64,000 nucleotides of DNA from Malacoraja senta (GCA_038087875.1 CM075992.1:6078001-6142000), one strand, 5' to 3'. Numbered from the stretch's first letter, positions 14,444 to 64,000 are shown. Notes: generated by a model from the sequence alone, not told the origin. Translations and numbers: made by a program.

Positions 14444-14643
14444 NNNNNNNNNNNNNNNNNNNNNNNNNNNNNNNNNNNNNNNNNNNNNNNNNNNNNNNNN
14501 NNNNNNNNNNNNNNNNNNNNNNNNNNNNNNNNNNNNNNNNNNNNNNNNNNNNNNNNNNNNNNNNNNNNNNNNNNNNNNNNNNNNNNNNNNNNNNNNNNNN
14601 NNNNNNNNNNNNNNNNNNNNNNNNNNNNNNNNNNNNNNNNNNN
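14444..14643. other. Assembly gap (200 N)
   Basis: Run of N. Confidence 1.
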
Positions 14644-16262: not shown

Positions 16263-16264
16263 TA

Positions 16265-18372: not shown

Positions 18373-18962
18373 CATGGTAAGGCAGAGTATAATGAATAAT
18401 GGGGAACAGCACAACTCGAAGACTTGGTCACTAGTAGAAACAGCCTCTCCACATTCTTTCCATCCAGGCCTTTCATTCTTCAGTAAGTTTCAATGCGATT
18501 CCCCCATCATCCATCTAAACTCCAACAAGTACAGGCCCACAAACGGTGGGTTCAGCCAGAGCAGCGAGTGTGCTGGTGGTGAGGATCTGGTTGTGTCTCT
18601 GCTCAAGGAACAGAATATTAATTGCCCACAAGGTGAGGTGCATGATTTAGACCCAGTAATGATGCAGGACCAGCAAAGTATTTCCAAATAGGGTTGTGCC
18701 TGACTTGGAGGGGAACCTGTGGGTGGTGGTGTTCCCAGTGCCTGAAGCCCTTGTCCTATTTGCTGATAAAGGTAAAAATGTCTGGAAGCAGCTGTTGGAG
18801 CAACCAAGGCAAGTAATCGACTGACTTCCAAGGACATTTCCTGCAGTATTTAAGAGCGACCACGTTGGTTCTGGTTACATAGACCAGCCTTGGTGATCAC
18901 ACCAGGTTAACAATAAGTAAACAATGTGTTTTTGTTGTTAACTATTGTCGCTGTTTACACAG

Positions 18963-19103
18963 ATATCGATGAGTGTGAATCCTCGCCCTGTCACCATAAC
19001 GCAAAATGTATCAACATGCCGGGTTATTACGTGTGCTTTTGCAAACACGGGTTTCTGGAATCACCTTCGTCGACCGGATACCAGGAAAATAGGATCTGTG
19101 ACG
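18963..19103 (+). CDS. Copy A exon: EGF-like Ca-binding domain 1 ([10 protein letters not shown]...RICD)
   Basis: acag|atatc acceptor, gacg|gtaagt donor, 141 nt, phase 1-1, six Cys. Confidence 0.9.
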
Positions 19104-22100
19104 GTAAGTACTGGAAGTGTCAACCACATTGGTGCGTTGGTCACGTGGGCTTGACCTGGTGAGGGCACCACATCTCCTTCCCTGGAGACGTGAGAGAAAC
19201 TGATGGTATATTTGTAACAACTTGTTCATTTTTGTGAGCACCATTACTCATGATTTGTTGTTTCCCATATTCCCGGTGCTGTGATGGGATGTGAATCTGA
19301 GTTTGTAGATGGAGACTGTGGTGATTTTATCCTGCACCACCAACAAACTCTGACCAGACACAATGTCCTCAGGTAACAGAGAACAACAAGGTTTACCATT
19401 GTGAAGGGTCTCAAGTTGGCATTGGAGTTGCTTACCCTTCACATTATCCCGCAGATTCCTGGAAATAACAAAGGATCTCATGGACGTTGTCCTCAGCCAA
19501 GGCCACAGGAAGGTCGAAGTGTTTTATAGAAGGCTGGGGTCACTTGGGATTTGTTGTCCACTGAGATTCAAAATTCAAACCTGGTTAGAGCCCAACCTGA
19601 GCCTGAGCCCAACCTGGAGTTGGGTCCCGCTGGAGGCGGTCAAGTCAAATGGTTTAACTTGACTTTGGACATGGATCTGAATGTGTGGGGATTGGGAAAT
19701 GGAGATGTGGACCAGGCTGTGCCCTTGGAAGCAGCGGTCATGTGGTAACGTCCGGATAGGCCAAGTTAGAGCTGGATGTCACACAATGTCTGGGAATTTA
19801 GTTTGGTGTAGTTTAGAGATACAGCATGAGTTCTATATTCTCCCACTTTCTTCTCCACTCCCCACACACTAGAGGCAATTTACAGAGGCTAATTAACCGA
19901 CAAACCCGCTCCTACTTGACATGTTGGACGAAAGCGGAGAATCAGGAATGTTTCCAATGACTCCTGTGTCTATGAGGCATACAGTCATAGAGTCATACAG
20001 CACGGAAACAGGCCCTTCGGCCCAACTCGTCCATGCTGACCAAGATGCCCCATCTAAGTTAGTCCCATTTACAAACATTTGGTCCATATCCCCCTGAGCA
20101 CTTCTTATCCCTGTACCTGTCCAAGTGTCTGTTAAATGTTATTATAGCATCTGCCTCAATTACCTCCTCTGTCACCTCGTTCCATACATCTGCCCCCCTC
20201 TGAGTGAAACAGTTGCCCCTCAGTTTCCTATTAAATTTGCCCCTCTCTTAAACCTCTGTCCTCTGGATTTTGATTCCCCTGCTCTGGGTAAAAGACTGTG
20301 TATTCATCCTATCTATTCCCCTCTTGATTTCATACATCTCTATAAGATCATCCCTCAGTGTGGGGTAAGTCCATGCCGGGCAGAGAGTGGGTGAAGAGTA
20401 ACAGGGATGTGAGAGTGAGCTCCTGTCACTCCAGGTTATCAACGAGTAAACAACGTGATTCTGTTGTCACTGTTTACACAGATATCGATAAGTGTGAATC
20501 CTCGCCCTGTCACCATAATGCAACTTGTACCAACACGCTGGGTTCCTACCAGTGCAACTGCAACGCAGGGTTTCAGGCATCAGTTTCGTCCACCGGACTC
20601 CGTGCAAATAAGACCTGTGAAGGTGAGGACAGGAAGAGTCAACCACATTCGTGCGTAGGTCACGTGGGCTTGACCTGGTGAGGACACCAGATCTCCTTCC
20701 CCGGGGACGTGAGAGAAACCGATGGTATATTTGTGACAACTTGTTCATTTTTGTGAGCACCATTACTCATGATTAGTTGTTTCCCATATTCCCGCTGCTG
20801 TGATGGGATGTGAATATGAGTTTGTAGATGGAGACTGTGGTGATTTTTTCCTGCACCACCAACATACTCTGACCAGACACAATGTCCTCAGGTAACAGAG
20901 AACAACGAGGTTTACCATTGTGAAGGGTCTCAGGTTGTCATTGGGGTTGCCTACCCTTCATATTATCCCGCAGATTCCTGGAATTAACAAAGGATCTCAT
21001 GGACGTTGTCCTCAGCCAAGGCCACAGGAAGGTCGTAGTGTTTTCAAAGAAGGCTGGGGTCACTTGGGATTTGTTGTCCACTGAGATTCAAAATTCAAAC
21101 CTGGTTAGAGCCCAACCTGCGCCTGAGCCCAACGTGGAGTTGGGTCCCGCTGGAGGCGGTCAAGTCAAATGGTTTAACTTGAGTTTGGACATGGATCTGA
21201 ATGTGTGGGGATTGGGAGATGGAGATGTGGCCCAGGCTGTGCCCTTGGAAGCAGCAGTCATGTGGCAACGTCCAGATAGGCCGTGTTAGAGCTGGATGTC
21301 ACACAAGGTCTGGGAGTTTAGTTTGGTTTTGTTCAGAGATACAGCATGAGTTCTATATTCTCCCACTTTCTTCTCCACTCCCTACACACTAGAGGCAATT
21401 TACAGAGGCTAATTAACCGACAAACCCGCACCTACTTGACATGTTGGAGGAAAGCGGAGAATCAGGAGTGTTTCCAGTGACTCCTGTGTCTATGAGGCAT
21501 TCAGTCATAGTCATACAGCACGGAAACAGGCCCTTCGGCCCAACTCATCCATGCCGACCAATTTGCCTCAATGAATTACTTCCTCTGTCACCTCGTTCCA
21601 TATATCTGCCCCCCTCTGTGTGAAACAGTTGCCTCTCCGCTTCCTATTAAATTTGCCCCTCTTAAACCTGTCGTCTGGTTTTTGATTCCCCTGCTCTGGA
21701 TAAAAACTGTACACTCGCCCTATCTATTCCCAACATGATTTCATACACCTCTATAAGATCAGCCCTCAGTGTGGGGTAAGAACATGCCGGGCAGAGAGTG
21801 GGTGAAGAGTAACAGGGATGTGAGAGTGACCTCCTGTCACACTCTGTGCATCACTCCCTCGTCAATCGCAGTCTCTCGCCCCTCACCATCCGTGCTGTTG
21901 ATGTTTGTATCTCTGTCCCTCTCTGCAACAGACGTGGACGAATGCGAGCATGGGCACCAGTGCAGCACCAACATGACCTGTCGCAACACCTTTGGGAGTT
22001 ACCTCTGTGTCTGTGGAGCAGGATATCACCCAGAGCTGGGACAGATGCACCAGGCCTGTCAAGGTAAACGCAGTCTTCAGATGAGAGCTGATGTTCAGGG

Positions 22101-25100
22101 AATCAAAACTGGAGATGACGGAAACACTCACCAAGTCAGGCAGAAGCTGTGGAAGGGACGGCGGGGACTGATTAGTGATGGTTAACATGGCTCTCTGGGT
22201 GGGAAATTGTGGATCACAGATTTGATTGGGTGCTTTGAAAAGGTGAGAAGGCACTTGCCATGTTTGCCTTCATTGGTCAGGGCATTCAGTACAACAGCCG
22301 TTGTGTTACAATTGTGCAAATGTTGGTGAGACCACACTTGAAATATTGAGACCACTTCAGGTCGCCCAGTCTGACGCTGCGCATGGTGGGAGCACCATGG
22401 TGGAGCTCTGGGTGAGGAGCAGAGTTGAGGTCTACTCTGCCCGATGGGTGAACATCAGGAGGGTGACTGGTGGAGTCTACAGGTGGCACTGACATCTCTT
22501 TCATGTGATTCTTACACCAGTCGATCCGCTCAATTGTTCCGACTCGGGAAAGCAGAGTTCCACAGTGCTGCGGTGCAGTCCCAAGCAGGTACGTGAACGG
22601 CCTCTGACTTCCACAGAGACACAGCGATTAGATCCACACTGCTGGAGCGACTCAGCGGGTCAGGCAGCACCTGTGGAGGGAATGGACAGACCACATCGAG
22701 TGTCGGGACCATCCTTCAAGATTTCACATTGTGGTGTCCACTACAATCAGACTGAAGAAGCTTCACGACCTCGAAACATCACCTATCCATGTTCTCCAGA
22801 GATGCTGCCTGACCCGCTGAGTTCCTCCAGCACTTTGTGTTTTACACTATGTACCATACCCTGTAAAGTACATGTCGCTCTACAGGACGTTTGTTCGGCT
22901 AAATTTGGACCATTACATACAGTTGTGGTCGCCACATTACAGGAAGGATGTGGAGGATCTGGAGAGGGTGCAGAATGATGTCTGGATTAGGTGGTGTTAG
23001 CTACAGGAGAGATTGGACAGATTGTGTTCTGGAATGCCAGAGGTTGAGGGGAGACCTGATAGAAGTATATAAAATGATGAGAGACATGGATGGGATAGAC
23101 AGTCAGCTTTAGGGCGAGAGGGGCAAAGTTTCAAGGAGTTGATCGGGGGACAAGTATTTTACACACGGGATAGTGGGTGCTTGGAACACACTGATGGGGG
23201 TGGAGCAGATATGACCATGGTGTTTAAGATACTTTTGCATTTGCACACAGATATGCAGGGAATGGAGGGATATGGGTTATGTACAGGCAGATAAGAGTTG
23301 GTCTTATCATCGTGTTCGCCACAGACATTATGGGCCAAAGGGCCTGTTCCTGTGCTGTACTCCTCAGTGTTCAGTGTTTATAAAGGCAACCCTTCTTTAT
23401 AAGCATCTCCTTGGTGTCATTGCCACCATTTAAGCCGTGAGGTCCATTCTGACACTCACACCACCCCTGTACACAAGCAGTTTTACAGCCTTTATAGTCG
23501 GACATTAACAAGAATATTTGTAAAACTCTTTTTCCGATTGCTTGTAACATTTGACTAATTCCCCAGCACGGCCAATCCAATATATCTAACTGTTGTCTTG
23601 TTCCATTGTCCAGTTAACCTCTGCAGAAGACGTGCTGAACAAAGCTGTTTGCTTCCAAGAGAAAATGTGTCAGAATTTCAACGTGGAAAGTGATATCAAG
23701 GTAAGGTTTTACAAACCGTACGATTTTATCTTCGGGTATAAGTGGTGAGTGTCTGAGATAGAGAGAGTCACGAGGATATTTACAAAGATTCTGTGGGCAG
23801 CACAGTGGCGCAGCGGGTAGAGCTGCTGCCTCACAGCCCTAGTCACAGGGTTCGATCCTGACTTTGGGTGCTGTCTGTGTGGAGTTTGCACGTTCTCTCT
23901 GTGACTGTATGGGTTTGCTTTGGGACCTCTGATTTCCTTCCACAATTGAAAGACGTGCAGGATAATTGTGTTCTGTAAGTTACCCCATGTGTATCGAGAG
24001 TGGATGAGAAACTGGGATGACATGGAACTAGTGTGAACGGGTGATCGACGGTCAGCGCGGACTCGGTGGGCCGAAGGGCCTGTTTCCGTGCTATTTCAGG
24101 ATTCTAGCATTCAATATGATGGAGACATCGAGAAAGGAAACAAGCACTTTGGCCAAACTCGTCCATGTTAACCAAGATGCCCCGTCTAAGCTCGTCCCAT
24201 TTCCCCATGTTTTGCCCATATTCTCTCAACATTACTGAACCATGTAACCGCAATGTTTTGCTTTTCAATATATTGAGTGTTCTCTTCACCCGTAGGACAT
24301 GGAAACCTTTACAAACACGGTTCTCAATCACTCACTGCTGGAAACCATGAACACAAATGAAAGGCTGAAGGTAGTAACAGCCACATTCGATCTTGTGGAC
24401 AATATGGCCATGGCGATAGCTCTCACTCTGCCCAGTTCACAAGTGAAGACCATCACAACAGATTCATTTGGTAAAGTACTCTCCGTGGGAAACATTCACC
24501 ATCGCAACAAAGGTTCTCGTTGCTAGTTACTGAGTGTGTGGAACTGGATTTAAATGAAGGGGAGGCAATGTGGAGTTTACTTTAAAATAATCAGCTTTGA
24601 GCCTGAAGTTCCTGTTCATCACTTGGTGTTGAATAGAGGAAGATGGATTGATTAAGATGTTGGCTCTTGATATCAATGTTACCGCAATATTTCCTGAGGC
24701 AGAAAATCAACAGAACTGCAGATTGAAGGGAATTTGGGGGGAAATGTCCCAGAAAATGCTGGAAACACTCGGCAGCTCAGGCAGCATCTGAGGCAAGAGA
24801 AACGGCCGATGTTTCAGGTTAAAGACGTGAACTCTTTCTCTTTCCACTCGTTCTGCCTGAGCTGCTGAATCCACCGCCTGCTGTGTTTTGATGTCAGAGT
24901 TGCTGAGACTGCGTGGGAAGGGCTTGGTGTAACAAGACACACCTAGAATGGTGAGGTGTCCTGTCTCCGGTGTTGTACCTGTTGCCACAGCTCCGTAGGC
25001 AGGTCGCTCAGGGGTCACTGTCAGCTGGGGTTCCTGTTTCGTGCAGGAACGAACTGCAGATGCTGGTTTAAACCAAAGATAGACACAAAACGCTGGAGTA

Positions 25101-28100
25101 ACTCAGCGGGGCAAGCAGCATCTCTGGAGAGAAGAAATGGGTGACATTTCGGGTCGAGACCCTACTTCAGACTGGTTAGAGAATAAGGGAAACGAGAGAT
25201 ATATACAATGAAGTCGAGAGATAAAGAACAATGAATGAAAGATATGCAAAAAAGTAACGATGATGAAGGAAACAGGCCATTGTTAGTTGTTTGTAGGGTG
25301 AAAACGAGAAGCTAGTGCGACTTAGGTGGGGGAGGGATAGGTAGAGAGGGAATGCAGGGGCTACCTGAAGTGAGAGAAATCAATATTCATACCACTGGGC
25401 TGTAAGCTGCCCAAGCGAAATATGAGATGATGTTCCTCCAATTTGCATTTAGCCTCACTCTGACAATGGAGGAGACCAAGGACAGAAAAGTCTGTGTGGG
25501 AATGGGAAGGAGAATTAAAGTGTTTAGCAACCGGGAGATCAGGTTGGTTCAGGTGGACTGAGCAAAGGTGTTGAGCTAAACGATCGCCCTGTTTCCCCGC
25601 ACCAAAGATCCTATAGCGAGCAAGATGGTCCACGATGGACGAAAAAGATGTAGCACGGTCATGGGCAGATTCATGGGTAATTTAAGGCCCCATTTCCGTA
25701 ACCGGCTTCCGTCTCCGCACCAAAGATCCCATTGGATAATAGTGCGGAGACGGAAGGGAAAAATCTTCTCCTCATTTTCAGAATTTTAATTTATTAACAC
25801 AAACTGTTACCCCGCAACGTTGATTACACTGCGAGTCGGGTCGGGTCGGGTCCGGTTACGGAAATGGATGAAAAAAAGGCCCACGTTCCGTTCCGTTGCG
25901 TACTACACGTCAGCCCATTGTATTTAGCAGGAGTGGTCTATCTTGCTTCGCTATAGGATCTTTGCCCCGCACTGTGCAGTGGTGACTGGAGCTCGCCTGT
26001 GCTGTACTTATACCCACAAACTCTAACTGTAGGTGTAGTAGCCGTTTAGCTGCCCACTGTTCACACTCAACTCACAACCTTCTCTAAAGAAAACAATGCC
26101 TCCTTCTCTGGCCTGTCCATGGGACTGGTGTTCCTCAGTGACTGGATATTACCACCAAATCTTGCCTGCTCTCTCTCTAAGGCCACATCTTCTCTCATGC
26201 AGGGTACCCAGGTGCAATATGACTGAACCATCTTCATAGCAATTCAATGACACTTCAACGGTGACATCCATCAGGACGTTCTGAGGTTGAGAGAGACACA
26301 GGGTTGAGGACCAGTCAGCCCAGACTCTGTGCTCAGGGTGTGGAAGTGGGACTCCACACTACCTCCAGGCTCAGAAGCAAGAGCACTACCTGAGCCACGG
26401 CTAACAAGGGTTGGCAAGCTGTTAGACCTTGGGGACTGTTGCAAAGCTTGTGGCAGAGAGAGAGACGGAGAGAGAGAGGGATCAGTTCTGTTGCCATTGC
26501 ATGCTTCACAATGTCTGATCTTTTCTCATAGTTCTGAAGGTCCAGGTGATTGAAAAGAAGAATAGCAGTGAGGACCAGTTGGTGGAGATGCAGGTTAAGA
26601 GCAATGTCATGAAGATATTCTGGAGTTCAATCACTGGAGGCACTAATCCTGGTAAATGTTCTGTCTCTTTCCCATCCTTCCATACCTGGTGTGTAGATAT
26701 CACAGGAACGGATGGAACATAGAAAACGACACAGCAGAGGAACAGGTCCTTTGGCCACAACCTCAGTGCGGAACATGAAGCCAAGATAAACTAGCCAGCC
26801 TGACCATGATCCATGTCCCTCCATAGCCATGTGCCTATCTAAAAGCCTCTTACACGCCATTATTGTGTCAGCTTACACCGCCACCCCTGGCAACATGTTC
26901 CAGGCACCCACCACCGTCTGGATTAAAAACTTGCCCCGCACATCTCCTTAAAACTTTTCCCTTTCACGTTAAAGCCATGCCCTCTCGTCTAGATATTTGC
27001 TACATTCATCACATCATTCCACAGAAAGGCATCATCTAGATGATGATGGGTGGATGTCATAGAATCTTTTATCCAGAGTAGGGGAATCAAGAACCAGAGG
27101 ACATAGGTTAAAGGTGAGAGGGGAACCCCAGGGGCAACTTTATCACTCATGGAGGGGTGGGTTTGTGGAAGAAGCTTCCAGAGGAGGATGTTGAGGCCGG
27201 TTCTATAACAGCCGGTTCTTTAAAAGACACTTGGACAGATACATGAATACAAAACATTTAGACAGATATGGGCCAAACGCAGGGAAATGGGACAAGCTTA
27301 GATGGGGCATCCTGGTCGGCATGGACAAGTTGGGCTAAAGGGCCTGTATCTGTGCTCTGTGACACAATGACTCTATCTTGTGTGTATGGCCATGTGTAAG
27401 CACCCACAAGGCACAAGTCAGGACCGTGATAGATCACCCTCCACTTGCCTGGATGAGTGCAGTTGAAACAGCACTCAAACTAACCTGACACTGTCCTGGA
27501 CAAAGCAGGCCGCTCGATGATCTCCCGATCCACCACTGTTTACAGCTGGTTTTAATGCTCAGAGCCCCAGTACAGGGCACCACAGGAATGGGTGGCGTGT
27601 GCTGTAGACCTGCCTTTATGTCCAGTTTCTGGAGTCTTACACCTGACATTTCTCCACACTCACCAATGGTTGAACTGTTATCTCCGGCAGAGTTTGTGGC
27701 TGTTTCCTTTCTTGTATTCAACGACATGGAATCCCTGTTGAACAGAGAGATTAAAGGGGGAAACTCAACTCAGAGGACGGTCCCATTGAAGTCCAAGGTG
27801 GTCTCAGCCACGATCAGCAACAAAGACGCCAGCTCCAAGCTGAAAGAAATGGTCAATTTCACTCTGATACTCAACCAGGTTTGTAAATACCACCCGGGGT
27901 GTTTCCCGATGGATAATGGGCTCCCCCAAAGGTACAAATGGGAAATAGTTCCTGAACTCAGAATTAAACCCCTTCCGCATCCATTGGGTAAGTCCCCATC
28001 AAATCTGGGTCACATAGTGCAGGAAATTACAAGGTGTTATCTAGGACTAACTGGACAAGTAAATGAGTGAAAAGCTAAAGGTGCAGAGACTGGAATGAAA

Positions 28101-31100
28101 TATAGAAAATGCCTGAAACACTCAGCAGGTCGGGCAGCATCAGTGGAGAGAGGAACAAAGCTAACTTCTCATTGTCTGCAGAACCTGCCTGACCTGCTGA
28201 GTACTTGCACCATCTTGTGTTTACGTTAGACTCAGATGAGAGGATTGGCTCTGATTGCACTCTTGGTGAACGAGGGAGAAGATGAGGAAGAACCTTTGCT
28301 CTGGGTGATTTACTGCTGGGAAGTCACCGTACACTATGTAGGGATGGGTGTCCATGTGACCCTGGTTAACCCACCACACCCTGCAGTGTGAAGGTTGGGA
28401 GGGCAGCAGACACACTGAGCCTGGCTTCAGGCCTGATGTCTCCACGTAAGCTGGGTCTGAGCTGGTTCAGGTCAGTTTATGGTCACCTCTCCATTCACCG
28501 TTACTCAGGGTCAGTACAAGGAGACCTGATGCAGGAAGTGGAAATGCCACATCTGAGGGAGAGGGGAGAAGGGTTAGAGATTGGTAATGAGGCGGGTCAC
28601 AGGAGGAGACCCTGTGCCACCATTTCTCAGGTGGTGGTGAAGCTGTAGTTTCAGAGTACAGCCGCCTTATCAATGAAAGACAATCGCTATCACTGCACTG
28701 TGCATGTGGGATGTCAGCTGGGATATTGTAGGAGCTTCACTCTCGATACACTCTGACTGCCCTTCCCCAGGCCAGTTTCAATGTGGAGGGAGCTTCACTC
28801 TGTATGTATCCAGTGCCCCACCCTCGGGCAGTTTGATGGGACAGTACGGTGTGATTGGTAGCAATGGTGTTCCCTCTGTTGTGTTAAATGTGATCCTGTG
28901 ACCGGTTTCCCACCTGTAGGAGGTCACTGTGAATTGCTGTCATCCAAGGGACAGGACAGATCTGATGTTTTCTGTGCTAACACAACTTGGGGAAGTGTGA
29001 ATGCTCAACCTGTTATCAGAAAGATTCCATCGATGGTTAACAGTCTTTGCTCTTCTCAGCCGCAGGAACAGAAAGACAACGAGACGCCAACGTGTGTGTT
29101 TTGGAAGACGACGGAAGGGGAAAGTGTCTGGTCCCGTGAGGGTTGTGTAACGTATGGTTTCAATCAGACACATGTGGACTGCCAGTGTGACCACCTCACA
29201 AGCTTTGCTATTTTAATGGCTCCTGTTGATCCTAAGGTACGAGGTCGTTCAACAGAAAAACTGAAGGGGGAACAAGTCAGAGTGAAGGAGACACACAGCA
29301 TTGAAACAGACCCTTCAGCCCACCATGTCCATGCTGACCCTGAAGCATCTATTGGTCTGAAGAAGGGTCTCGACTCGAAACGTCACCCATTCCTTCTCTC
29401 CAGAGATGCTGCCTGTCCCGCTGAGTTACTCCAGCTCTTTGTGTCTGTTAAATCTGCTACTTGATAGACTGAAGAAGTCTTCAGTCTGAATAAAGGTCCC
29501 GAACCAAAACGTCACCCGTCCTTTTTCTGCAGAGATGCTGCCTGACCTGCTGAGTATCTCCAGTGTCTATCTTCAGTATAAATCAGCATCTGCAGTTCCT
29601 TTCTACACAATGCTGCTACTTGGTCTGTTGCCTTCTACACCTTGGTGATTTAAGTCATACCTTAGTGCGCTGTGAGGGAGCTGCCTCTCCCACCCACTCA
29701 ATCTGAGTGTCCCAGATCACAGGCACTCACAGGGTGAAATCATTCCTCCTCAAATCCTCCCCATATCTCACACCCTTTACCCTACACCTGTACCCTCTGG
29801 TTTTACATGCCTGTGCTGTGATATAAAGTTTCTCATTATCCACTTCATCTACACCCATCCCATTCATAATTTGTGTACCTTAATCAAGTACAATCAACCT
29901 TACGGGAGAGGAATCATGAACTGAGGGACATGGGTTGAAGGTGAGAGGGGAAACAATTAATGGGAACCTGAGGGACAGCTTTTCCACACAGTGTGTCGCT
30001 GGTATGTGAAAGTAGTTGAGACAGGTCCAATGGCAACATTTAAAAAACATTTGGACAGGCACAGAGGAATGTGGTCCAAATACGGGCAAATGGGACTCAA
30101 GGGTTCTTGAATGAGGGGTTGAATGGGGAGCATTCTAGAACACAATGAATGGTGTTCTAGAGGTTGACTGGGCCTGGCCCAAAGCTCCAGCCTGTTGTCC
30201 CTGGAGACACTGCGAGTATCAGAGTCTCAGGACATCAGGGTGACAAGGGTTCTCGATCACAATGAAATTGATGGTCAATGGTCTAGAACATGACGGGATG
30301 GTGCCTGTAGATCTAGAACTCAAGGGGACCAGGTCCAGGCCTCAAGCCTGTTGTCAATGGACATTCTGGGGGTATCAGAGCCCCACACTTCAGGGTTGGT
30401 GTTCATGAAGGAATTGATTATTGACGTTCTAGAACATGATGAGCTGGTGCCTGTAGATCTAGAACTCAAGGAGACCTGGCTCAGAGCTCCAGCCTGTTGC
30501 CCATGGACATTCTGGGGGTATCAGAGCCCCAGGCATCAGGATTGGTGATCACCAGGGAATTAATAGTTGACGTTCTAGAAAATGATGAGTTGGGGCCTGG
30601 AGATTGAGCGCTCGAGGGGACCAGCCCCAGACTCCATCGTGTTGTCCCTGGAGACCCTGCCGCTGCTGTGGTATGAACGTTGTGTCCCACATTGTGCCCA
30701 CTGCAGGATGACCGGCACTTGGAGGTGATCACCTACATCTGCCTCATCATCTCTCTGCTGTGCCTCGCCGCCTCCATCGCCATCTTTGTCAACTGCAGCT
30801 CCATCCAGAACGCCAACACCACCGTCCACAAGCACCTGAGCTTCACCCTCTTCCTGGCACAGTTCGTCTTCCTGATAGGAATGCGGATCAAACACAAGGT
30901 GAGAAATCCAAGCTGCAGCTTCAAATTCTCAGCCCTCTCCTCAATCTTGACCTTATCTACACCTCTCATCATTTCACATACTCCTCTCAGATCTACCCTC
31001 AGCCTCCAAGTATTGCTGCAGAGAAAATAATACATATGCTCAACTTCAACTTATGGCAAATCCCTCTAATCCAGGCAGCTTCCTGGTGAACCTCTTCTGC

Positions 31101-34100
31101 ACCCTCTCCAAAGCTTCCACAACCTTCTCATCATAGACGGGTTGAATTACAGATTTATTTAATTATTGGTGGGATTGAAGTTCACGTTCTGGGTCCAAGT
31201 CCGGCAATTGACCCATTCTGCTTGGCTGCTGGGATCAACAGAAATGTGCAATTTATTTACACTACTAAACCTTGCTGGAGATATTGAGACCCGGAACTCC
31301 TGCAGAACTCCAAATTCATCATTCCAAACTAGGTTTAGTTTAGTCTAGAGATACAGCTATGAAACAAGCCCTTTGGCCCACCAAATCTACGCCGACTAGC
31401 GACCCCCACACACTATCCTACACACTCGGGACAATTTACAATCTTTTCTTACATTCACCAATTAACCCACAAACCTGTACGTCTTTGGAGTGCGGGAGGT
31501 AACTGGAGCTCCCGGAGAAAACCCACGCGGTCACAGGGAGAATGTACAAACTCCGTACAGACAGGATCTCTAGGCAGGCAGCAACTCTACCACTGAGCCA
31601 TTGTGCCACCCTAATGTATAGTGACGATAGTTTCTCTGGGTATCTGTGTGTGTGTGTCTCTGCCCACCGTATCTGACCATTGCTGCCTGTCTATGACACA
31701 CTCTCCTACCACCCAGTGCTGCCCACTAACCCAGCTGTTGCCATTGTCTTTAGGTGGTGTGCGGCCTGATTGCAGGATGTTTGCATTACCTCTTCCTCGC
31801 CGTCTTCGTCTGGATGTTCCTGGAGAGTTTGCAGCTTTTCATCATGTCCAGACACCTCACCGTCACAAACTACAGTCGCACGCACGTCATCAAACGAAGA
31901 TACCTCTACGTTTCCAGCTGCGCCGTGCCTGCTGTGATAGTCGTTATCTCCGTGGCAATAAACCCCAAAGGCTACGTATCGAATAATCAGTGAGTAACAA
32001 CTTATGGACAGGAATGTTTCAGTGGGATTCGGGCCAAACACTGGCACGTGGGACTAGGGTAGATGGGGCAGCTTGGTCTGCATGAGCAAGTGGGGCCGTA
32101 CGGCCTGTTTCCATGCTGTATGACTCTGTGCTTCTGATAGGGAAATGTCACAGCTCTACAGCTGATATATTCCTACACAGTGAGAGGCCATTTGGTCCAT
32201 TGGATCCATGCAAGCTCCCAGCAGACTGATCCCATCAGTCCCATTGTCCCTCTCCTTATCTCCCTGCATCTTATTCTCTCAGTAACTCTGACTCTTTTTC
32301 CACCCACCTACACTGAGGGGGAATTCACCGCAGATCGTCATCTCCCCCTCATCTTTAACAACTCCAAAGACGTACAGGTTTGTAGGTTAATTGGCTTGGT
32401 TTTAAATGTAAAATTATCCATAATGTGTGCAGGATAGTGTTATTGTACAGGGATTGCGGGTCGGAGCGGACTCGGTGGGCCGAAGGGCCTGTTTCTGCGT
32501 TGTCTCTCTAAACTATACAAAACAGTGACCCTATGTGTGTCAGTGCCAGCTCACAGCACTGGGCCTTCCACAAGTACCTCATGAGCCGAGTGTGAGTCAG
32601 TAACAAAACTCTTTCCTCCTCACAGCTGTTGGCTGAGCCTGGAGTCGGGCGTCCGCTGGAGTTTCCTGGGGCCGGTTTGCCTGGTGATCGTGGTAAGCTT
32701 CTCCCCGGTGACTCCCCTCAACCCAACAACACTTCACTAAACGCTTCGCTGCTTGCAGCTGGTGGCAACTCCATCCCAATGGTTCACCAGAATGCTGCCT
32801 GCATTAGAGGGGATTAGCTACAAGGGGAGGTTGGACAGACTTGGATGGTTATCCCTGGAATGCCAGAGGTTGAGGGGAGAACTGATAGAAGTATATGAAA
32901 TTATGAGAGGCATAGATAGGGTAGACAGTCAGAACCTTTTCCCAAGGTGGAGATGTCAAAGACTAGAGGACATAGCTTAAGGTGAGAGGGGATAAATGTA
33001 AAAGAGAAGTGAGGGGTAAATTTTGTTACACAGAGTGGTGGGTACCTGGAACGTGCTGCTGGTGGTGGTGGAGACAGATATGGTAGTGGTGTTTAAGAGC
33101 TGTTTAGATATGCACATGGATATGTGGGGAATGGAGGGATGTGGTTCATGTGCACAGAGAGGTGATTAGTTTATTTTGGCATCGTGTTCATCATGGACAT
33201 TGTGGGCCGAAGGGCCTGTTCCTGTGCTGCGCTGTTCCATGTTCTCTGTTAAAGCAAGTTCCCATCTTTAAAGCCCTCCCTTGCCTCTCCTTCTATCTCA
33301 CACTGAGTAGGCCTGGGACAGGCCAGGGGCAGGGCTGTGGATGCCTGCCCATTGAGGAGGTGACGTGGTGCAGGCTGAGGGGGCCGGGGCTCTGTGATTC
33401 TGGGCCGGCTGGAGGAAAGAGGCAGTGAAAGCAGGGGGAATAATTCCCCCATCTCCTGGCGCGGTGTTCCCGAGTCACAGACCCCCACCCGCAGTGAAAG
33501 GGGAACTCGGTGACGGCCAGACGATGCAGGAAGGACGGAGGAATCCCCAAAATATACGAGGGGAGAGATGAGGGCCGGCAGAGTCTCGGGCAGAGGGAGA
33601 GAGGGTCACGGGGAGCGGTGAGGGAAGAGTGTGTAGGTGGCAGCGGGAGAGAAGGGAAGGCACCGGAGGGAATTGCGTGTGGGATGTGGTGGATGCCGGC
33701 CTCAGGAGACTCTGTTTCTCTCCCTCTCCAGGTCAACACCGTGCTGTTAGCTTGGACGCTCTTCCTACTGAGGAAACATTTTGCCTCACGCAACAAGGAA
33801 GTGTCGAAACTCAAAGAAACCAGGTACGTGGAGCAGAGAACATCGAGAACGGTACAGCACAGCAACAGGCCCTTCAGCCCACCATGTCTGTGCTGACCAC
33901 GATCAACGTTGCAACTCATCCCATCTGCCTGCGTGTGGTCCACATCTCTCCATCCTCAGCCTGTTCAAGAGCCTGTCTGAATGTATCTTAAATATGACCA
34001 TGGTATCTGCTGCCACCTCCTGTCCTGGCAGCGCAGTCCAGGCACCCATCACTGTGTAAAAACAACTTGCATATCTCTCAAATCTCCCTTAAACCGGCTT

Positions 34101-37100
34101 GATTTTGAACAACTTTCTCCCCCCCCCCCCCGCTTCGGGTTTTCCGAGAGATGCAGAGAGTCGGGGCCTGTACTCTCTCTCTGTCTCTCACTTCCAGGGC
34201 TCTCTCCACTTTTCGCAGCCCACTCATTCGCCCGGCTCCCCTCCACCTCTCCCCCCTCTCCTCCTCCTCCTCTCTCCCCCCCCTCTACTCTCTCTCCCCG
34301 TCCCACCCTTCCCTCTCCCCCCTCTACTTCTACGCCCTCTACCCTCCCCCTCCTCCCCCTTCCCCCTCCTCCCCCTTACCCTCTCCCCTCCCCACTCTCT
34401 TCCCCCCTCCCCCTGCACTCCCCCCTCTCCCCCCCTGTGTGTTTGGGGGGTGGTTAGTGTGTGTGTGACGCCGCAGGCCCCCCCCCCTCCCCCTCCCCCG
34501 CAACCGCGCGTTGAGGGGACGGGACCCAACGGGTATCCCTTGGTCTAATCTCCCTTAAACTTTCCCCCTTACACTTTAAACCTATGCCCTCTAGCATTTG
34601 ACCTCCCCCACCCTGAGAATACCAGACCTTTCTACCCTTTCTACCCAACCTCTTCATCCCTTGTACTTGAACTGATCCCTGGTGACTGAGTGGGCTGAGG
34701 GATGGCAGGGTCCCAGGGTGGGTCTCTGTCCATGGTGCTGATCTCTGACCATGGTGACAATGGAAGTGGGGAGGGAAGCTGGATTAGTTTACAGATACAG
34801 CTTGGAACCAGGCCCTTCGGCCCACCGACTCCATGCTGACCATTGATCACCCATTCACACTAGTTCTATGTCATCCCACTTTCTCATCACTCCCTGCACA
34901 CTTGGGGCAATTTCCAATTAACTTTTAAACCCACACGTCTTTGGGGTGTGGGAGGATACCGGAGCTCCCGGAGGAAACCCACGTGGTCACAGGGAGAACG
35001 TTCATACTCCACACAGGCAGCACCCAAGGTCAGGATCAAACCCGAGTCTCTGGCGCTGGGTGGCAGCAGCTCTACCTGCTGCACCATTGTGCCGTCCCTT
35101 AAGTCAGGATCAATTTCTGCATGATGATGTTCGGAACAGGCCCTTCGGCCCACAATATCTGCACCAATCAGGTGATTATATGAAAGATGCACTGATTTTA
35201 TAACTTGCTGTTGGGTGTTCAGAATGCCCCAAGAGAGTGAAAGATCCCACATGGAAGGAGTTTCTTCATGACAATGTTCCCATTGACCTGCTCTCTTCCC
35301 TCCTTGTGCACAGAACCCTGACCCTCAAGGCTGCCGCACGGATGCTTGTTTTGGGAAGCACCTGGATCTTGGGAATATTCCAGGTGGATGAGAGCACCAT
35401 GGTGTTGTCCCACTTGTTCACCATCATCAACAGTCTGCAGGGGCTGTTTGTTTTCCTCATTTACTGTGTCTTCAACCGGCAGGTGAGGAGAACCTCCGCA
35501 AATAAACCTTCCCTCCTCTGATGCTGCTCTTTGCACTCTGACACGGCTGTGGTCAATGTTCACGCCGTCTTTCAATGACCCACGGACTGGGAGCAAGAAT
35601 CGCCCACTTGCTTCTTCACATTCCCTCCACCATTTAATAAGACCAGGACGATCTGATTGTGATCTCCCACCTTCGTTCCCATCCACCCTCGATCACCCTT
35701 CACCCCTTCCTGATCCAGAAGCTCTCCATCTCTCTGGGAAAGGTTTCCAAGAGCCTGCTCCCACTGCCTTTTGAAGCAGATTGGTGGTGTTTTGGATGGT
35801 GAGGAGGGTAGTCTCAGGCTACGGACAGATATTGATCAGCTGCTGAGATGGGCAGACCAAAGGCAAATGGAATTTAATCCACGAGAGGATGTTACCAGGA
35901 CTTGGGGGTCTGTGCCATAGAGGGAGTGCAGAGAAGGTTCACCAGACTGATTCCTGGGATGTCAGGACTGTCTTATGAAGAAAGACTGGATAGACTTGGT
36001 TTATACTCTCTAGAATTTAGGAGATTGAGAGGGGATCTTATAGAAACTTACAAAATTCTTAAGGGGTTGGACAGGCTAGATGCAGGAAGATTGCTCCCGA
36101 TGTTGGGGAAGTCCAGGACAAGGGGTCACAGCTTAAGGATAAGGGGGAAATCCTTTAAAACCGAGATGAGAAGAACTTTTTTCACACAGAGAGTGGTGAA
36201 TCTCTGGAACTCTCTGCCACAGAGGGTAGTCGAGGCCAGTTCATTGGCTATATTTAAGAGGGAGTTAGATGTGGCCCTTGTGGCTAAAGGGATCAGAGGG
36301 TATGGAGAGAAGGCAGGTACGGGATACTGAGTTGGATGATCAGCCATGATCATATTGAATGGCGGTGCAGGCTCGAAGGGCCGAATGGCCTACTCCTGCA
36401 CCTAATTTCTATGTTTCTATGTTTCTATGTGCTATAGGGTGAGATTGAGCAGGCTAGGACTATATTCCTTGGAGAGCAGGAGGATGAGGGGTGATCTCAT
36501 CAAAATCATTAGACGAGTTGATTGGGGAGATGAACAGAGTCTCTTAACCAGAGTAGGGTAATCAAGAACCAGAGAATATAGGTTTGAGGTGAAGGGGGAA
36601 AGATTTAATACAAATCTGAGGGGTAATATTTTCACACAAAGGGTGGTGGGTTTATGGAACGAGGTGCCAGAGGAAGTAGTTGAGGCAGGGACTATTGCAA
36701 GGTTTAAGAAACAAGTAGACTGGTACATGGATAGGACAGGTTTAGAGGGATATGGGCCATACGCAGGCAGGTGGGACCAGTGTAGATGGGACATGTTGGT
36801 CGACGTGGGCAAGTTGAGCCGAAGGCTCAGTTTCCACACTGTATGACTCTTTATGCCTCTTAATGGCAAGATACACATGAATGATGGGGTATTCAGGGAC
36901 AGAGAGACATTGATGTACGAGTCCTTAGTCCACTGAGGGCCACAGCACAGGTGTGTAGGGTGGTAAAGGTGACAACAGGTTGCCATCTTCACTGGCTGGG
37001 ACAAAGAACATAAGAGCATGGATGGTATGGGGCAGGTTTATAAAGCATTGGTTAGGCCACGTCTGGAACATTGTCTGCAGTTGTGGTCGTCACAGTCTAG

Positions 37101-38868
37101 AAATGCCATGATTGCTCTGGAGATGGAGCGGAGGAGATTCACCAGCACGTTGCCCAGAGTGGAGAGTCTCAGTTATGGACGGAGACTGGGTTTGTGTCCT
37201 TGGGGCGTAGAGGGTTGAGGGGGGACTGAGAGAGGTGTACAAAATGATCAGGGGCAAGGATAGACTTGAATCTCCCTCACAGCAGAGATGTCCGTTATCG
37301 GAGGGCAGAGGTTTAAAGGTATGGTTTAGAATGGATATAAGGAAGAATGTTTTCACTCAGAGTGGGTTGGAGTTTGGAGCCACTGCCTGAGGGGCTGTGG
37401 AGACACGGACTCTCACAACATTTAGACAAACACTTGAATTGCCAAGGCATAGAAGGCTACAGGCCAAGTGTGGGTAAACGGGATCAGTATTGATGGTTAC
37501 TTGATTGTCAGCATGGAGAGGATGGGCCGAAGGGCCTGTTTCTCAGCTGAACAACTCTGTGACTGAAGAGAGATCCAGAGAACCACGACCCTGTGAGAGA
37601 AAATGGTGGACAGGCCAATCCCAATGGAGCTGGTAAGAAGAGGAAGCATCTTGGAGACTCGCTCCTGAGTGAGTGATCCCATGGAGATGCTAACGGCAGA
37701 AGCCACTGGATAAGTGTGAACTCTCACTTGACTTTGGGACAAAGCGCGTTGAACGGTTGGAAGTTTTCTCCATGGGTTGAAATATTCCCATTTTGTTGAA
37801 GGTGGCGGCTGAATGTCGGAAATGGTTGACCAAAAAGCGCAAGAATTTCAACTCCAAATCCTCACAGATTGAGATGAACTCGACTGAGGTAAGGAGCTTT
37901 ATCCAGAAACACAGAAATCCTCAGCAGGTCAGGCAGCGTCTGTGGAGAGAGAAACCAAGTGAAGGACTCCGGTCGATGATCTCACATCAAACCTGCTCCA
38001 CTGGAAGGCTCATCCACCTGAAACACGAACTCTGTTTCTCTCTCCACATCTGAACGTTTCAGGACTCGTCCTCACAACATTCAGACACGGACTGATCTGT
38101 GGCAAGTGGTTCATAAGTTCATAAGATTGAGGAGCAGAATTAGGCCATTCGGCCCATCAAGTACACTCTGTCATTCAATTGTGGCTAATCTACCTTTCCC
38201 CCTCAACCTCGTTCTCCTGCCTTCTCCTCATAACCCCTGATAGCCTTAGGGGGGTCGACCAGGTCCTGGCCATGGTCTAGGTCCCAACTCACCTATAGAC
38301 CAGACCCCTAGAGATGGAGGGAGAGTTTCTGCCTCCACTCGGCTATCTGCTGCCCTCTGCTGGAGTCTGAAACCGTGATGACTTCAATAACAATGCAGTT
38401 TGTTCCTTTTGCTGGGAGTGGCATTCACAGGCTCCTGGCAATGTGCCCCATCCTCGCCCCTCCTCACCCAAGTAGGTGGCAGTGTCTGACAGACCATTGC
38501 AGGCCACCGCAGGTGATGGGCACAGTGTGGTCCTTCCTCCCGTTCCATCCCACCTGTTGACCCTGATGACCCAGAGGGACATTGTCCACCTGGTAGAACA
38601 AACTGCACAGTGGACAGAGGATCCGCACTGGCTATATATCTCGACATCACTGGCTATATCTCTCGTTCCCTTTCCTCTGACTAGTCTGAAGAAGGGTCTC
38701 GGCCCGAAACGTCACCCAATCCTTCTCTCCAGAGATGCTGCCTGCCCCACTGAGTTACTCCAGCACGTTGTGTCTATTTCAGGTCCATGAGGTTGATCTC
38801 AAGTGTGTGTTGATTGGAGCGAGATACAGTAAGCCATTGCAATCTCATTTTGTTTTATCCAGACTTAG
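18963..38868 (+). CDS. ADGRE: Adhesion GPCR of the EGF-TM7 / ADGRE (EMR/CD97-like) family, copy A; 16 visible coding exons, 5' end (signal peptide) not found
   Basis: Sixteen AG..GT-bounded exons with compatible phases total 2078 nt (+1 nt from an unseen upstream phase-1 exon = 693 codons). They encode 3 cbEGF-like repeats, a stalk, GAIN, the GPS motif [11 protein letters not shown] and seven hydrophobic helices. The specific paralogue cannot be assigned by eye. Confidence 0.92.
20482..20622 (+). CDS. Copy A exon: EGF-like domain 2 (DIDKCESSPC...KTCE)
   Basis: acag|atatc acceptor, gaag|gtgagg donor, 141 nt, phase 1-1. Confidence 0.9.
21932..22063 (+). CDS. Copy A exon: EGF-like Ca-binding domain 3 ([11 protein letters not shown]...ACQ)
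   Basis: aacag|acgtg acceptor, caag|gtaaac donor, 132 nt, phase 1-1. Confidence 0.9.
22521..22588 (+). CDS. Copy A exon: stalk ([23 protein letters not shown])
   Basis: ccag|tcgat acceptor, cag|gtacgt donor, 68 nt; phase 1-0 bridges EGF3 to the next exon; conserved in copy B. Confidence 0.75.
23614..23700 (+). CDS. Copy A exon: stalk ([29 protein letters not shown])
   Basis: Polypyrimidine tract + ccag acceptor, aag|gtaagg donor, 87 nt, phase 0-0. Confidence 0.8.
23796..24092 (+). mobile_element. tRNA-derived SINE (HE1/V-SINE-like); mirrored in copy B at ~58845-59142
   Basis: GCACAGTGGCGCAGCGGGTAGAGCTGCTGCCTCACAG..GGTTCGATCC head and GGGCCGAAGGGCCTGTTTCC tail. Confidence 0.8.
24296..24470 (+). 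CDS. Copy A exon: GAIN helical part ([10 protein letters not shown]...TTDSF)
   Basis: gtag|gac acceptor, ttg|gtaaag donor, 175 nt, phase 0-1. Confidence 0.85.
25045..25590 (-). mobile_element. Penelope-like GIY-YIG 3' fragment; mirrored at ~57355-57895
   Basis: [32 protein letters not shown]. Confidence 0.85.
25603..25964. mobile_element. hAT-type MITE (362 bp), copy A only
   Basis: TIR CAAAGATCCTATAGCG.. / ..CGCTATAGGATCTTTG, 8-bp TSD CCCCGCAC; empty site in copy B at ~57345. Confidence 0.92.
26532..26651 (+). CDS. Copy A exon: GAIN ([10 protein letters not shown]...GGTNP)
   Basis: catag|ttctg acceptor, ctg|gtaaat donor, 120 nt, phase 1-1. Confidence 0.85.
27691..27878 (+). CDS. Copy A exon: GAIN (EFVAVSF...SKVVSATIS...VNFTLILNQ)
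   Basis: ggcag|ag acceptor, cag|gtttgt donor, 188 nt, phase 1-0; SxVVSA and VNFT motifs typical of GAIN beta strands. Confidence 0.88.
29060..29236 (+). CDS. Copy A exon: GPS motif (CVFW...WSREGC...[13 protein letters not shown])
   Basis: Canonical GPS consensus with intact H-L|T cleavage triad; ctcag|ccg and aag|gtacga; 177 nt. Confidence 0.95.
29357..29384 (+). ncRNA. Minimal hammerhead-ribozyme-like motif (Penelope-associated)
   Basis: CTGAAGA-AGGGTCTCGACTC-GAAAC-GTC with GGT/ACC flanks. Confidence 0.5.
30130..30660. repeat. Diverged intronic tandem repeat, ~145-nt period; mirrored at ~52820-53290
   Basis: Recurring TTCTAGAACA(T)GA..GATCTAGAACTCAAGG..CCAGCCTGTTG units. Confidence 0.75.
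30707..30898 (+). CDS. Copy A exon: TM1-TM2
   Basis: [13 protein letters not shown]...[13 protein letters not shown]; gcag|gat and aag|gtgaga; 192 nt. Confidence 0.93.
31754..31989 (+). CDS. Copy A exon: TM3-TM4
   Basis: [20 protein letters not shown] motif; ttag|gtg and ca|gtgagt; 236 nt, phase 0-2. Confidence 0.93.
32626..32692 (+). CDS. Copy A exon: ECL2-TM5 ([22 protein letters not shown])
   Basis: CWL..WSFLGP motif; cacag|c and gtg|gtaagc; 67 nt, phase 2-0. Confidence 0.93.
33732..33823 (+). CDS. Copy A exon: TM5 end-ICL3 ([11 protein letters not shown]...SKLKET)
   Basis: ccag|gtc and cag|gtacgt; 92 nt, phase 0-2. Confidence 0.92.
34120..34548 (+). mobile_element. Helitron-like non-autonomous fragment with a C-rich tract; mirrored at ~48390-48770
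   Basis: Ends in a GGGACCCAACGGGT..CCC hairpin followed by TTGGTCTAA. Confidence 0.45.
35314..35482 (+). CDS. Copy A exon: TM6-TM7 (LGSTWILG...[14 protein letters not shown])
   Basis: LGxTW and NSLQG motifs; cacag|a and cag|gtgagg; 169 nt. Confidence 0.94.
35913..36430 (+). mobile_element. Young 5'-truncated CR1 LINE in a copy A intron
   Basis: Open C-terminal ORF, near-identical to the 3' end of the 12515 element; (TATGTTTC)n tail. Confidence 0.92.
37802..37888 (+). CDS. Copy A exon: helix 8 / cytoplasmic tail (VAAECRKWL...MNSTE)
   Basis: gaag|gtg acceptor, gag|gtaagg donor, 87 nt, phase 0-0; conserved in copy B. Confidence 0.82.
38686..38713 (+). ncRNA. Minimal hammerhead-ribozyme-like motif
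   Basis: CTGAAGA-AGGGTCTCGGCCC-GAAAC-GTC. Confidence 0.5.
38863..38868 (+). CDS. Copy A putative terminal exon, coding part (ACT TAG)
   Basis: Strong acceptor tctcattttgttttatccag in an island also kept in copy B; a phase-0 entry gives T-stop. Confidence 0.55.
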   Translation, partial: T

Positions 38869-63300: not shown

Positions 63301-63935
63301 GTTGGGCTCTAATCAGGTTTGAATTTTGAATCTCAGTGGACAACAAATCCCAAGTGACCCTAGCCTTCTTTGAAAATACAATGACCTTCCTGTGGCCTTG
63401 GCTGAGGACAACGTCCATGAGATCCTTTGTTAATTCCAGGAATCTGCGGGATAATATGAAGGGTAGGCAACCCCAATGCCAACTTGAGACCCTTCACAAT
63501 GGTAAACCTTGTTGTTCTCTGTTACCTGAGCACATTGTGTCTGGTCAGAGTATGTTGGTGGTGCAGGATAAAATCACCACAGTCTCCATCTACAAACTCA
63601 TATTCACATCCCATCACAGCAGCGGGAATATGGGAAACAACTAATCATGAGTAATGGTGCTCACAAAAATGAACAAGTTGTCACAAATATACCATCGGTT
63701 TCTCTCACGTCCCCGGGGAAGGAGATCTGGTGTCCTCACCAGGTCAAGCCCACGTGACCTACGCACGAATGTGGTTGACTCTTCCTGTCCTCACCTTCAC
63801 AGGTTTTATTTGCATGGAGTCCGGTGGACGAAGCTGATGCCTGAAACCCTGCGTTGCAGTTGCACTGGTAGGAACCCCTCGTGTTGGTACAAGTTGCGTT
63901 ATGGTGACAGGGCGAGGATTCACACTCATCGATAT
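45329..63935 (-). CDS. ADGRE: Adhesion GPCR of the ADGRE family, copy B; continues beyond the window; one stalk exon interrupted by a LINE (possibly pseudogenised or exon-skipping)
   Basis: Fifteen exons homologous to copy A, with the same sizes and intact splice sites; all are open except the 87-nt stalk exon. Confidence 0.88.
45760..46112 (+). mobile_element. Old CR1 LINE fragment
   Basis: [25 protein letters not shown]. Confidence 0.85.
46207..46293 (-). CDS. Copy B exon: cytoplasmic tail ([29 protein letters not shown])
   Basis: 87 nt, AG/GT intact. Confidence 0.82.
47392..47560 (-). CDS. Copy B exon: TM6-TM7
   Basis: 169 nt. Confidence 0.93.
47777..48090 (+). mobile_element. HE1/V-SINE-like SINE; mirrored at ~34790-35095
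   Basis: Same head and tail. Confidence 0.8.
49067..49158 (-). CDS. Copy B exon: TM5 end-ICL3
   Basis: 92 nt; protein identical to copy A. Confidence 0.92.
49493..50232 (-). mobile_element. GC-rich ~740-bp insertion, copy B only (probable retroposon)
   Basis: Copy A is uninterrupted at ~33268; CpG-rich interior. Confidence 0.75.
50811..50877 (-). CDS. Copy B exon: ECL2-TM5
   Basis: 67 nt, [16 protein letters not shown]. Confidence 0.92.
51512..51747 (-). CDS. Copy B exon: TM3-TM4
   Basis: 236 nt. Confidence 0.92.
52574..52765 (-). CDS. Copy B exon: TM1-TM2
   Basis: 192 nt. Confidence 0.92.
54038..54065 (-). ncRNA. Minimal hammerhead-ribozyme-like motif
   Basis: CTGAAGA-AGGGTCTCGACCC-GAAAT-GTC on the minus strand. 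Confidence 0.45.
54186..54362 (-). CDS. Copy B exon: GPS motif
   Basis: 177 nt; [13 protein letters not shown] intact. Confidence 0.94.
55430..55617 (-). CDS. Copy B exon: GAIN
   Basis: 188 nt, homologous to 27691-27878. Confidence 0.88.
56655..56774 (-). CDS. Copy B exon: GAIN
   Basis: 120 nt, homologous to 26532-26651. Confidence 0.85.
58467..58641 (-). CDS. Copy B exon: GAIN helical part
   Basis: 175 nt, homologous to 24296-24470. Confidence 0.85.
59237..60806 (-). pseudogene. Copy B 87-nt stalk exon split by a 1.48-kb LINE insertion
   Basis: 60732-60806 (75 nt) plus 59237-59248 (12 nt) rebuild the 87-nt exon of copy A; LINE sequence lies between them. Confidence 0.88.
59249..60728 (+). 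mobile_element. Young 5'-truncated Rex1/Babar-like LINE (RT domain)
   Basis: [33 protein letters not shown]; one frameshift near 60055; tail AATAAAGTTGAATCTGAATC; ACT duplicated at the junctions. Confidence 0.93.
61841..61908 (-). CDS. Copy B exon: stalk ([10 protein letters not shown]...)
   Basis: 68 nt, AG/GT intact. Confidence 0.75.
62370..62501 (-). CDS. Copy B exon: EGF domain 3 ([11 protein letters not shown]...)
   Basis: 132 nt, AG/GT intact. Confidence 0.9.
63795..63935 (-). CDS. Copy B exon: EGF domain 2 ([10 protein letters not shown]...KTCE)
   Basis: 141 nt; 7 nt differences from copy A 20482-20622. Confidence 0.9.
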
Positions 63936-64000
63936 CTGTGTAAACAGTGACAACAGAATCACGTTGTTTACTCGTTGATAACCTGGTGTGACAGGAGCTC

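Follow-up and report, generated by a model that had tools for sequence, protein, structure and literature searches.

The analysed DNA, a stretch of 64,000 nt from Malacoraja senta (GCA_038087875.1 CM075992.1:6078001-6142000; referred to as the window), carries a plus-strand gene designated gene A and an inverted paralogue, designated gene B. The 15 gene A exons in the window all have AG/GT ends, form a single open frame and encode, in this order, three EGF domains, a stalk plus GAIN region with a GPS, and a secretin-type 7TM region. Upstream of the window the gene continues with exons for a signal peptide, for a half-EGF and for one more EGF; the last is designated E0 (G000:C16:6067237-6067377). 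The joined gene A model comprises 774 codons with 0 stops; its start codon was seen and it ends short of the last exon. The features are as follows:

14444..14643, unstranded: assembly gap in the repeat-rich intron between E0 and E1
18413..18962, plus strand: upstream intron flank of E1
18963..19103, plus strand: EGF1 exon (E1), the second complete EGF of gene A, of a derived and fast-evolving type
19004..19039, plus strand: E1 codons 14-25, predicted major beta-hairpin
19104..20481, plus strand: intron after E1
20482..20622, plus strand: EGF2 exon (E2), slow spacer type, 4-14/141 nt from 13 gene B exons, Glu3 replaced by Lys
20623..21931, plus strand: intron after E2, second copy of the 1.5-kb unit
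21932..22063, plus strand: EGF3 exon, membrane-proximal type
22521..29236, plus strand: stalk and GAIN region with GPS motif, six exons (22521-22588, 23614-23700, 24296-24470, 26532-26651, 27691-27878, 29066-29236)
30707..37888, plus strand: secretin-type 7TM region and start of the tail, six exons
46113..64000, minus strand: gene B, continuing past the window with an array of spacer EGFs
63795..63935, minus strand: gene B EGF exon B01, positional counterpart of E2 (7/141 nt apart)

The ORF lists of the intron between E0 and E1 revealed only transposon remains and no further gene. Nested CR1-like LINE copies, inverted (96%), lie on both sides of the assembly gap (window 12521-17474), which may represent a mis-join. 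An LTR-retrotransposon-like element with 210-nt direct repeats (97%) occupies window 2704-4881; its internal frames are, judged by their motifs, gag- and protease-like.

Profile searches of gene A identified the GPS (PF01825, E=2e-16) and, on four exons, 7tm_2, as is characteristic of adhesion GPCRs, and the His-Leu-Thr cleavage motif is present. The Pfam GAIN profile matched the 69-90% identical homologues and not the single window exons. Two further traits are those of the ADGRE (EGF-TM7) group: (i) tandem N-terminal EGF or calcium-binding EGF repeats, each encoded by one phase-1 exon, and (ii) clustering in one chromosome region, 20 of the 24 matches to one 7TM exon being located on contig C16. 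The non-EGF part of the predicted protein shares about 90% identity with proteins of Amblyraja and Leucoraja, 81-82% with Rhinoraja and 69% with Pristis; the ADGRE-like names of these batoid homologues (7/7 matches) come from automatic annotation. Gene A is thus predicted to encode an intact ADGRE-like adhesion GPCR, whose likeness to CD97/EMR2 is one of fold only.

Comparison of the paralogues A, B and C (paralogue D was left out on account of its frameshifts) revealed purifying selection on the 7TM region (omega 0.40), and values of 1.28 for the stalk/GAIN region and 1.01 for EGF3, which point to loose ectodomain constraint across the whole young family. In the cytoplasmic tail exon (window 37802-37888 and its counterparts in paralogues B and C) almost all differences are non-synonymous (29 codons, LRT 9.2 vs omega=1). 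Related 7TM exons were found in C16 1.1-12.8 Mb (at least 20 on C16) and on C1473 and C5399. Two close paralogues, one with an open frame at C16:12.756-12.783 Mb and one with frameshifts on C1473, start, in the fetched DNA, at an EGF3-type exon; no exon of the EGF1 or EGF2 type was detected in 100 kb of paralogue C or on contig C1473.

The preliminary description of this DNA had proposed that EGF1 and EGF2 are tandem duplicates whose exons diverged far faster than their introns, and its observations on the pair were reproduced. Both are genuine phase-1 EGF exons with AG/GT ends and differ at 31 of 141 nt, with 19 amino-acid-changing codons and two that are silent only, whereas the first 290 nt of the following introns contain 18 differences; all six Cys are conserved in both, and two sequons (residues 12 and 42) are present in EGF2 and absent from EGF1. 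Over the whole alignable intron, 71 of 1217 nt differ (5.8%), and the exon-intron contrast is significant (Fisher p=4e-9; p=4e-5 with each changed codon counted as one event). The 31 exon differences (12 transitions, 19 transversions) are distributed over codon positions 1, 2 and 3 as 6, 16 and 9; 29 fall within nt 43-141, and CpG transitions account for 4 of them in an exon that is CpG-rich. The reported scarcity of silent changes holds as a codon count, but multi-hit codons mask silent steps, and Nei-Gojobori dS is 0.20 against a dN of 0.29. In unchanged codons, silent differences affect 1-2 of 18-20 sites (5-11%), a level similar to that of the introns.

Since the outgroups have Thr14, the absence of the first sequon from EGF1 is a loss; at position 44 they have Ile, Val or Ala, so that the second sequon probably arose in the lineage of EGF2. 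The calcium-binding EGF consensus comprises acidic residues before Cys1, Asn17 and an aromatic residue at position 22. E0 and E1 match it; only in EGF2 is the acidic residue 3 replaced by Lys, which the preliminary description had missed, although EGF2 still scores above the EGF_CA cut-off. Around the donor site of E1 (window 19102-19118) lie five changes specific to this unit, by which the site has become a perfect consensus donor; E0 retains the ancestral form.

Gene B contains a head EGF, 13 full exons of the EGF2 type, one truncated exon and three exons that are of a different type and have dead acceptors. Its introns are 2.0-4.7% from those of gene A (four samples), and the two genes are colinear, with E1 occupying the place of B02. 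In the array (G000:C16:6141795-6165191), which is built of higher-order 3.65-kb repeats (97% identical), three exons have CAT for the CAG acceptor, two of these being also frameshifted, and besides the truncated exon there is another that lacks Cys1. A 1.5-kb fragment of a non-LTR retrotransposon, whose frames resemble reverse transcriptase (window 59239-60728, minus strand; G000:C16:6137239-6138728, approximate), is inserted 10 nt before the donor of an 87-nt GAIN-region exon of gene B, a phase 0-0 exon whose skipping would keep the frame. A 6.65-kb tandem duplication with 99.8% identity (G000:C16:6176771-6191171) ends at an assembly gap and is likely an assembly artefact. In exon 2 (end of the signal peptide plus half-EGF; G000:C16:6055338-6055436 in gene A, 6165804-6165899 in gene B) 28 of 57 nt differ in the mature part. 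This exon was considered as a second selected case (37/96 nt in total, flanks about 88-90% identical by eye) and rejected: omega is 0.87 and the site test (LRT 3.3) was not significant. Relics of exon 2 were found in a gene A intron (G000:C16:6061794-6061921), where the final Cys is missing, and in the DNA upstream of gene B (6172225-6172536).

Comparison with this array showed that EGF1 and EGF2 are not sister copies: the relatives of EGF2 are the repeats of gene B, and the sister of EGF1 is E0 (bootstrap 100). The distance of EGF2 from the 13 gene B exons is on a par with that of introns, whereas EGF1 differs from them at 27-36 and E0 at 26-36 of the 141 nt, although the E0/E1 flanks are only 3-6% from the corresponding gene B flanks. 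A repeat of Amblyraja differs from EGF2 by 3 residues and from EGF1 by 17, and relative-rate tests of E1 against E2 were significant with 5 of 6 homologous repeats. Because of these distances and rates, EGF2 is best regarded as an almost ancestral, ordinary repeat of the spacer array, and EGF1/E0 as a derived lineage. Fast divergence of the exon pair therefore applies to EGF1, while EGF2 has barely changed. Between E0 and E1 there are 12 non-synonymous differences and one synonymous difference. The ancestral head EGF, present in gene B, Leucoraja and Pristis, has no copy in gene A; therefore E0 and E1 would be the membrane-distal domains.

Two contigs from other species span the exon, one from run X10 (organism F, depth 13) and one from X12 (organism D, depth 9). 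Read by hand, both lack the spacer letters at the EGF1-diagnostic codons 21, 31, 36, 39, 41 and, by subtraction, 18, and they differ from E1 at codons 14, 19, 23, 25, 28, 32, 34, 40, 43 and 46. The 23 exon differences among those listed for X10 correspond to 11 amino-acid-changing codons and one silent codon; 7 of 31 letters for X10 and 18 of 38 for X12 lie outside the differences listed, which makes the comparison a lead rather than a count. On this sequence evidence, the EGF1 lineage appears to be carried by two other species with different residues at these places. The spanning contig of X16 has spacer-type letters, runs X1, X2 and X3 gave no contig over the middle of the exon and are uninformative on the EGF1 type, and intron pieces from four runs other than those of organisms D and F are about 3-6% from the window.

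Codon models were fitted with our own code and naive empirical Bayes, rather than codeml, to only 46 codons, the truncated B05p and B12 (a near-duplicate of B10) being omitted. For the EGF1-EGF2 pair itself, dN/dS was not significantly above 1 (omega 1.4-1.8, p 0.30-0.39), and the site test of the pair (p=0.026) fell to p=0.30 when multi-nucleotide changes were allowed. The branch model was no better than a single ratio (LRT 1.7) and marginal against omega=1 (LRT 4.0). With 15 exons, M2a fitted better than M1a (LRT 32.7) and placed 31% of sites at omega 6.3; for the E0/E1 lineage the branch-site test gave an LRT of 26.8, with sites 14, 23, 25, 28 and 39; with double and triple hits the values were 23.7 (site) and 19.3 (branch-site). 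Overall, once E0 was added, the site and branch-site p values ranged from about 1e-4 to 1e-7, including the runs with multi-nucleotide changes. Star trees of three sequences (E0, E1 and one spacer exon), whose topology cannot be wrong, were significant in 5 of 5 cases (p<=7e-5), and with multi-hits the LRT of 18.4 was matched by 0 of 83 null simulations. The spacer array alone (13 exons) was also positive (p=1.7e-4), a value that recombination may have inflated by distorting the tree. The tests support positive selection on the E0/E1 lineage at a small number of exposed codons. The diversifying selection on an exposed surface that had been suggested for the EGF1-EGF2 pair is therefore upheld after addition of E0 and the other repeats, not on the pair alone, and only for the EGF1 lineage.

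The upstream flank of E1 is 4.3% from that of E0 and 3.3-5.5% from those of gene B units, and is shared with E2 over only about 56 nt; downstream of E1, the intron differs by 5.1-5.8% from its counterparts after E2 and in five gene B units, with E1-specific changes near the donor. The upstream introns of E0 and E1 are closer to those of B08/B10 (2.7-3.3%) than to each other (4.0%; weak tree support), and the upstream and downstream introns of E1 match different sets of units. These distances and trees lend partial support to the earlier alternative of intron homogenisation by conversion, as an exchange of flanks between units, with selection supported as well. Selection and flank exchange both act, and the exon-intron gap therefore overstates the effect of selection; contrasting exons with introns in tandem exon arrays overestimates selection generally, owing to such exchange of flanks. 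An ancient paralogue under ordinary purifying selection is excluded as the source of EGF1, judging by the silent sites in unchanged codons, since just 1-2 of 18-20 of them differ.

We consider it probable that E0 and E1 are derived copies of a spacer-type EGF under positive selection, in which the outer face of a hairpin was likely remodelled into a ligand-binding patch. It is unlikely, though worth serious consideration, that they are instead an older EGF1-type lineage drifting under relaxed constraint, while crossover and conversion made its introns uniform with those of the array, in which case the gap would be due to different ages, not selection. Such drift would account for a dS of 0.20 against an intron distance of 0.058, for the omega near 1 of other ectodomain exons, for E0 and E1 being sister exons despite upstream introns nearer to B08/B10 (weak support), and for the two introns of E1 belonging to different unit sets. 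The neutral exon distance was estimated at 0.12-0.19, and an intron-like 0.056 was rejected (p<0.05) in 4 of 5 trios; however, 0.08 was rejected in none of the five, silent sites in unchanged codons are just 5-11% apart, 16 of the 31 differences are at second codon positions, and M1a, which permits neutral sites, was rejected without use of the intron data. There is a small chance that clustered multi-nucleotide mutation or a local hot spot made the excess, purifying selection having merely purged changes of Cys and core residues. The strongest sites 23, 25 and 28 are indeed multi-hit codons, the changes are rich in transversions (19, with 12 transitions) in a CpG-rich exon, four intron changes lie within the first 15 nt past the E1 donor, and the pair-only test loses significance with multi-hits. 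Nevertheless, tests including E0 remain significant under multi-hit rates, only 4 of 31 differences are CpG transitions, and the same codons changed again among E0, E1 and the X10/X12 contigs while adjacent silent sites did not.

It is highly improbable that gene conversion brought in the middle of EGF1 from the EGF exon of a distant paralogue, for instance the head EGF, even though the differences lie in one tract (nt 43-141) and Trp23 and Lys27 are common to E0 and the head EGFs of gene B and Pristis. Apart from E0, neither a protein search (only E0 exceeded 63% identity among the 150 of 317 candidates scored) nor a DNA search of the assembly (E0 and E1 only) identified the near-identical distant paralogue that such an import implies; by eye, the silent positions of Gly20 and Cys24 in E0 are spacer-type codons and not those of the gene B head exon, and the protein tree places E0/E1 among rajid spacer repeats (rough support). 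We attach next to no probability to E0 and E1 being two haplotypes of one exon set in tandem by the assembly, which would make the signal partly allelic. An assembly gap and near-identical LINE copies do separate them, but the second unit starts directly after E0, without the gap intervening (6067478-6068189 repeats 6062086-6062804), intron divergence between the units amounts to 4-6%, and even between alleles the ratio of 12 non-synonymous to 1 synonymous difference would indicate balancing selection.

The position of the changes is consistent with positive selection on the E0/E1 lineage. A structure model of EGF1 of moderate confidence (pLDDT 73, four of five models being at or below 50, and with no side-chain directions; single-sequence folding was poor, pLDDT 59) predicted a hairpin at residues 13-18 and 21-26. 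E1 is changed at all six of residues 14, 16, 18, 21, 23 and 25, and at none of 13, 15, 17, 22, 24 and 26, three of which are Cys; from strand alternation we infer that the changed residues face outwards. They read T,T,T,S,Q,N for the spacer type, K,I,M,Y,V,F for E1 and Q,I,M,Y,W,W for E0: polar residues have given way to mainly hydrophobic or aromatic ones, and the core and the Cys are retained. Foldseek returned no row with E<0.001; the top rows were CD97/ADGRE5 and EMR2/ADGRE2 (TM 0.72-0.79, E 0.02-0.03). By analogy with known EGF ligand platforms, the hairpin face of E0/E1 is a candidate ligand-binding patch.

The following course of events may be proposed for the E0/E1 lineage. Because gene A is without the ancestral head EGF, a spacer repeat would have taken the distal position. 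Loss of Thr14 would remove both an N-glycan and an O-fucose consensus site, exposing the hairpin face, and the fact that E0, E1 and the copies in other species have gone on changing suggests that the partner itself is moving, as a pathogen ligand or a host protein that evolves fast would be. The intron flanks would meanwhile have been exchanged between units by unequal crossover and conversion, so that the intron distance of 5-6% probably understates the age of the E0/E1 exons somewhat. Codons 14-28 and 39 in both distal EGFs are the specific surface at which an orphan adhesion GPCR probably contacts a partner that changes, and the near-ancestral spacer repeat is a built-in control for binding assays. 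As a more speculative and rather doubtful generalization, skate ADGRE-like genes might draw new binding heads from glycosylated spacer EGFs (a copy moves to the tip, sheds its glycan site and acquires an aromatic hairpin face convergent with the lost head and Notch EGF12, in a species-by-species arms race), the cluster of about 20 genes being a diversifying innate-recognition family in cartilaginous fish.

Gene A shares with the batoid ADGRE-like proteins of Amblyraja (XP_032890620), Leucoraja (XP_055521421 and XP_055520038), Rhinoraja (XP_078285515) and Pristis (XP_051898097) a signal peptide, a half-EGF, tandem calcium-binding EGFs, GAIN/GPS and 7TM. Their non-EGF parts are 69-90% identical to that of gene A and their spacer repeats nearly identical to EGF2; among the EGF repeats drawn from 12 such proteins there was no EGF1-type repeat, and gene A differs in being without the ancestral head EGF. 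A search by title and start of abstract, with subscription journals outside its coverage, yielded no skate or shark report of this locus.

Among unrelated receptors, Notch1 carries a ligand platform on EGF12, formed by the hydrophobic pair L468 and I477 across the central hairpin, beside O-fucose Thr466 (PMC3591638). In a gapless alignment, residues 14, 16, 21, 23 and 25 correspond to T466, L468, E473, Q475 and I477 (our numbering from residue order), so that Ile16 and Phe25 of E1 align with L468 and I477, and Thr14 of the first sequon also fits the O-fucose consensus Cys2-X4-Ser/Thr-Cys3 (PMC3591638). The likeness is positional only: the Notch1 platform is conserved and keeps its fucose site (PMC3591638), whereas the skate face is hypervariable and has lost it.

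In CD97/EMR2 the distal EGFs bind ligand, and three residues alter affinity (PMC8191316). By our own mapping from Cys82 and Gly87, the CD55-contact residues Asp81, Glu86 and Val137 of CD97 correspond to positions 14 and 19, which are changed in E1; the strongest skate sites 23, 25, 28 and 39, however, lie outside the CD55 contacts named there (PMC8191316), and identity between the CD97/EMR2 and skate EGFs is 29%. Conversion among EMR2, CD97 and EMR3, as cited in PMC2720389, keeps EGF exons alike, whereas the skate exon diverges while its flanks stay alike.

A further parallel is mammalian ADGRE1 (EMR1, F4/80), for which rapid divergence, duplication and skipping of EGF exons have been described and pathogen-driven selection proposed (PMC6174849). 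As in gene A, each EGF is encoded by one in-frame exon and EGF exons are duplicated internally, and conservation of the EGFs is limited to structural and calcium motifs; the paper names lack of constraint as an alternative and does not contain the phrase 'positive selection' (PMC6174849). In the skate, by contrast, the fast lineage goes back to a spacer repeat and codon-level tests were applied to it; ADGRE1 serves as a parallel, not as a demonstrated orthologue. Fast evolution of ADGRE EGFs is known in mammals, and what is new here is a skate instance of this known pattern.
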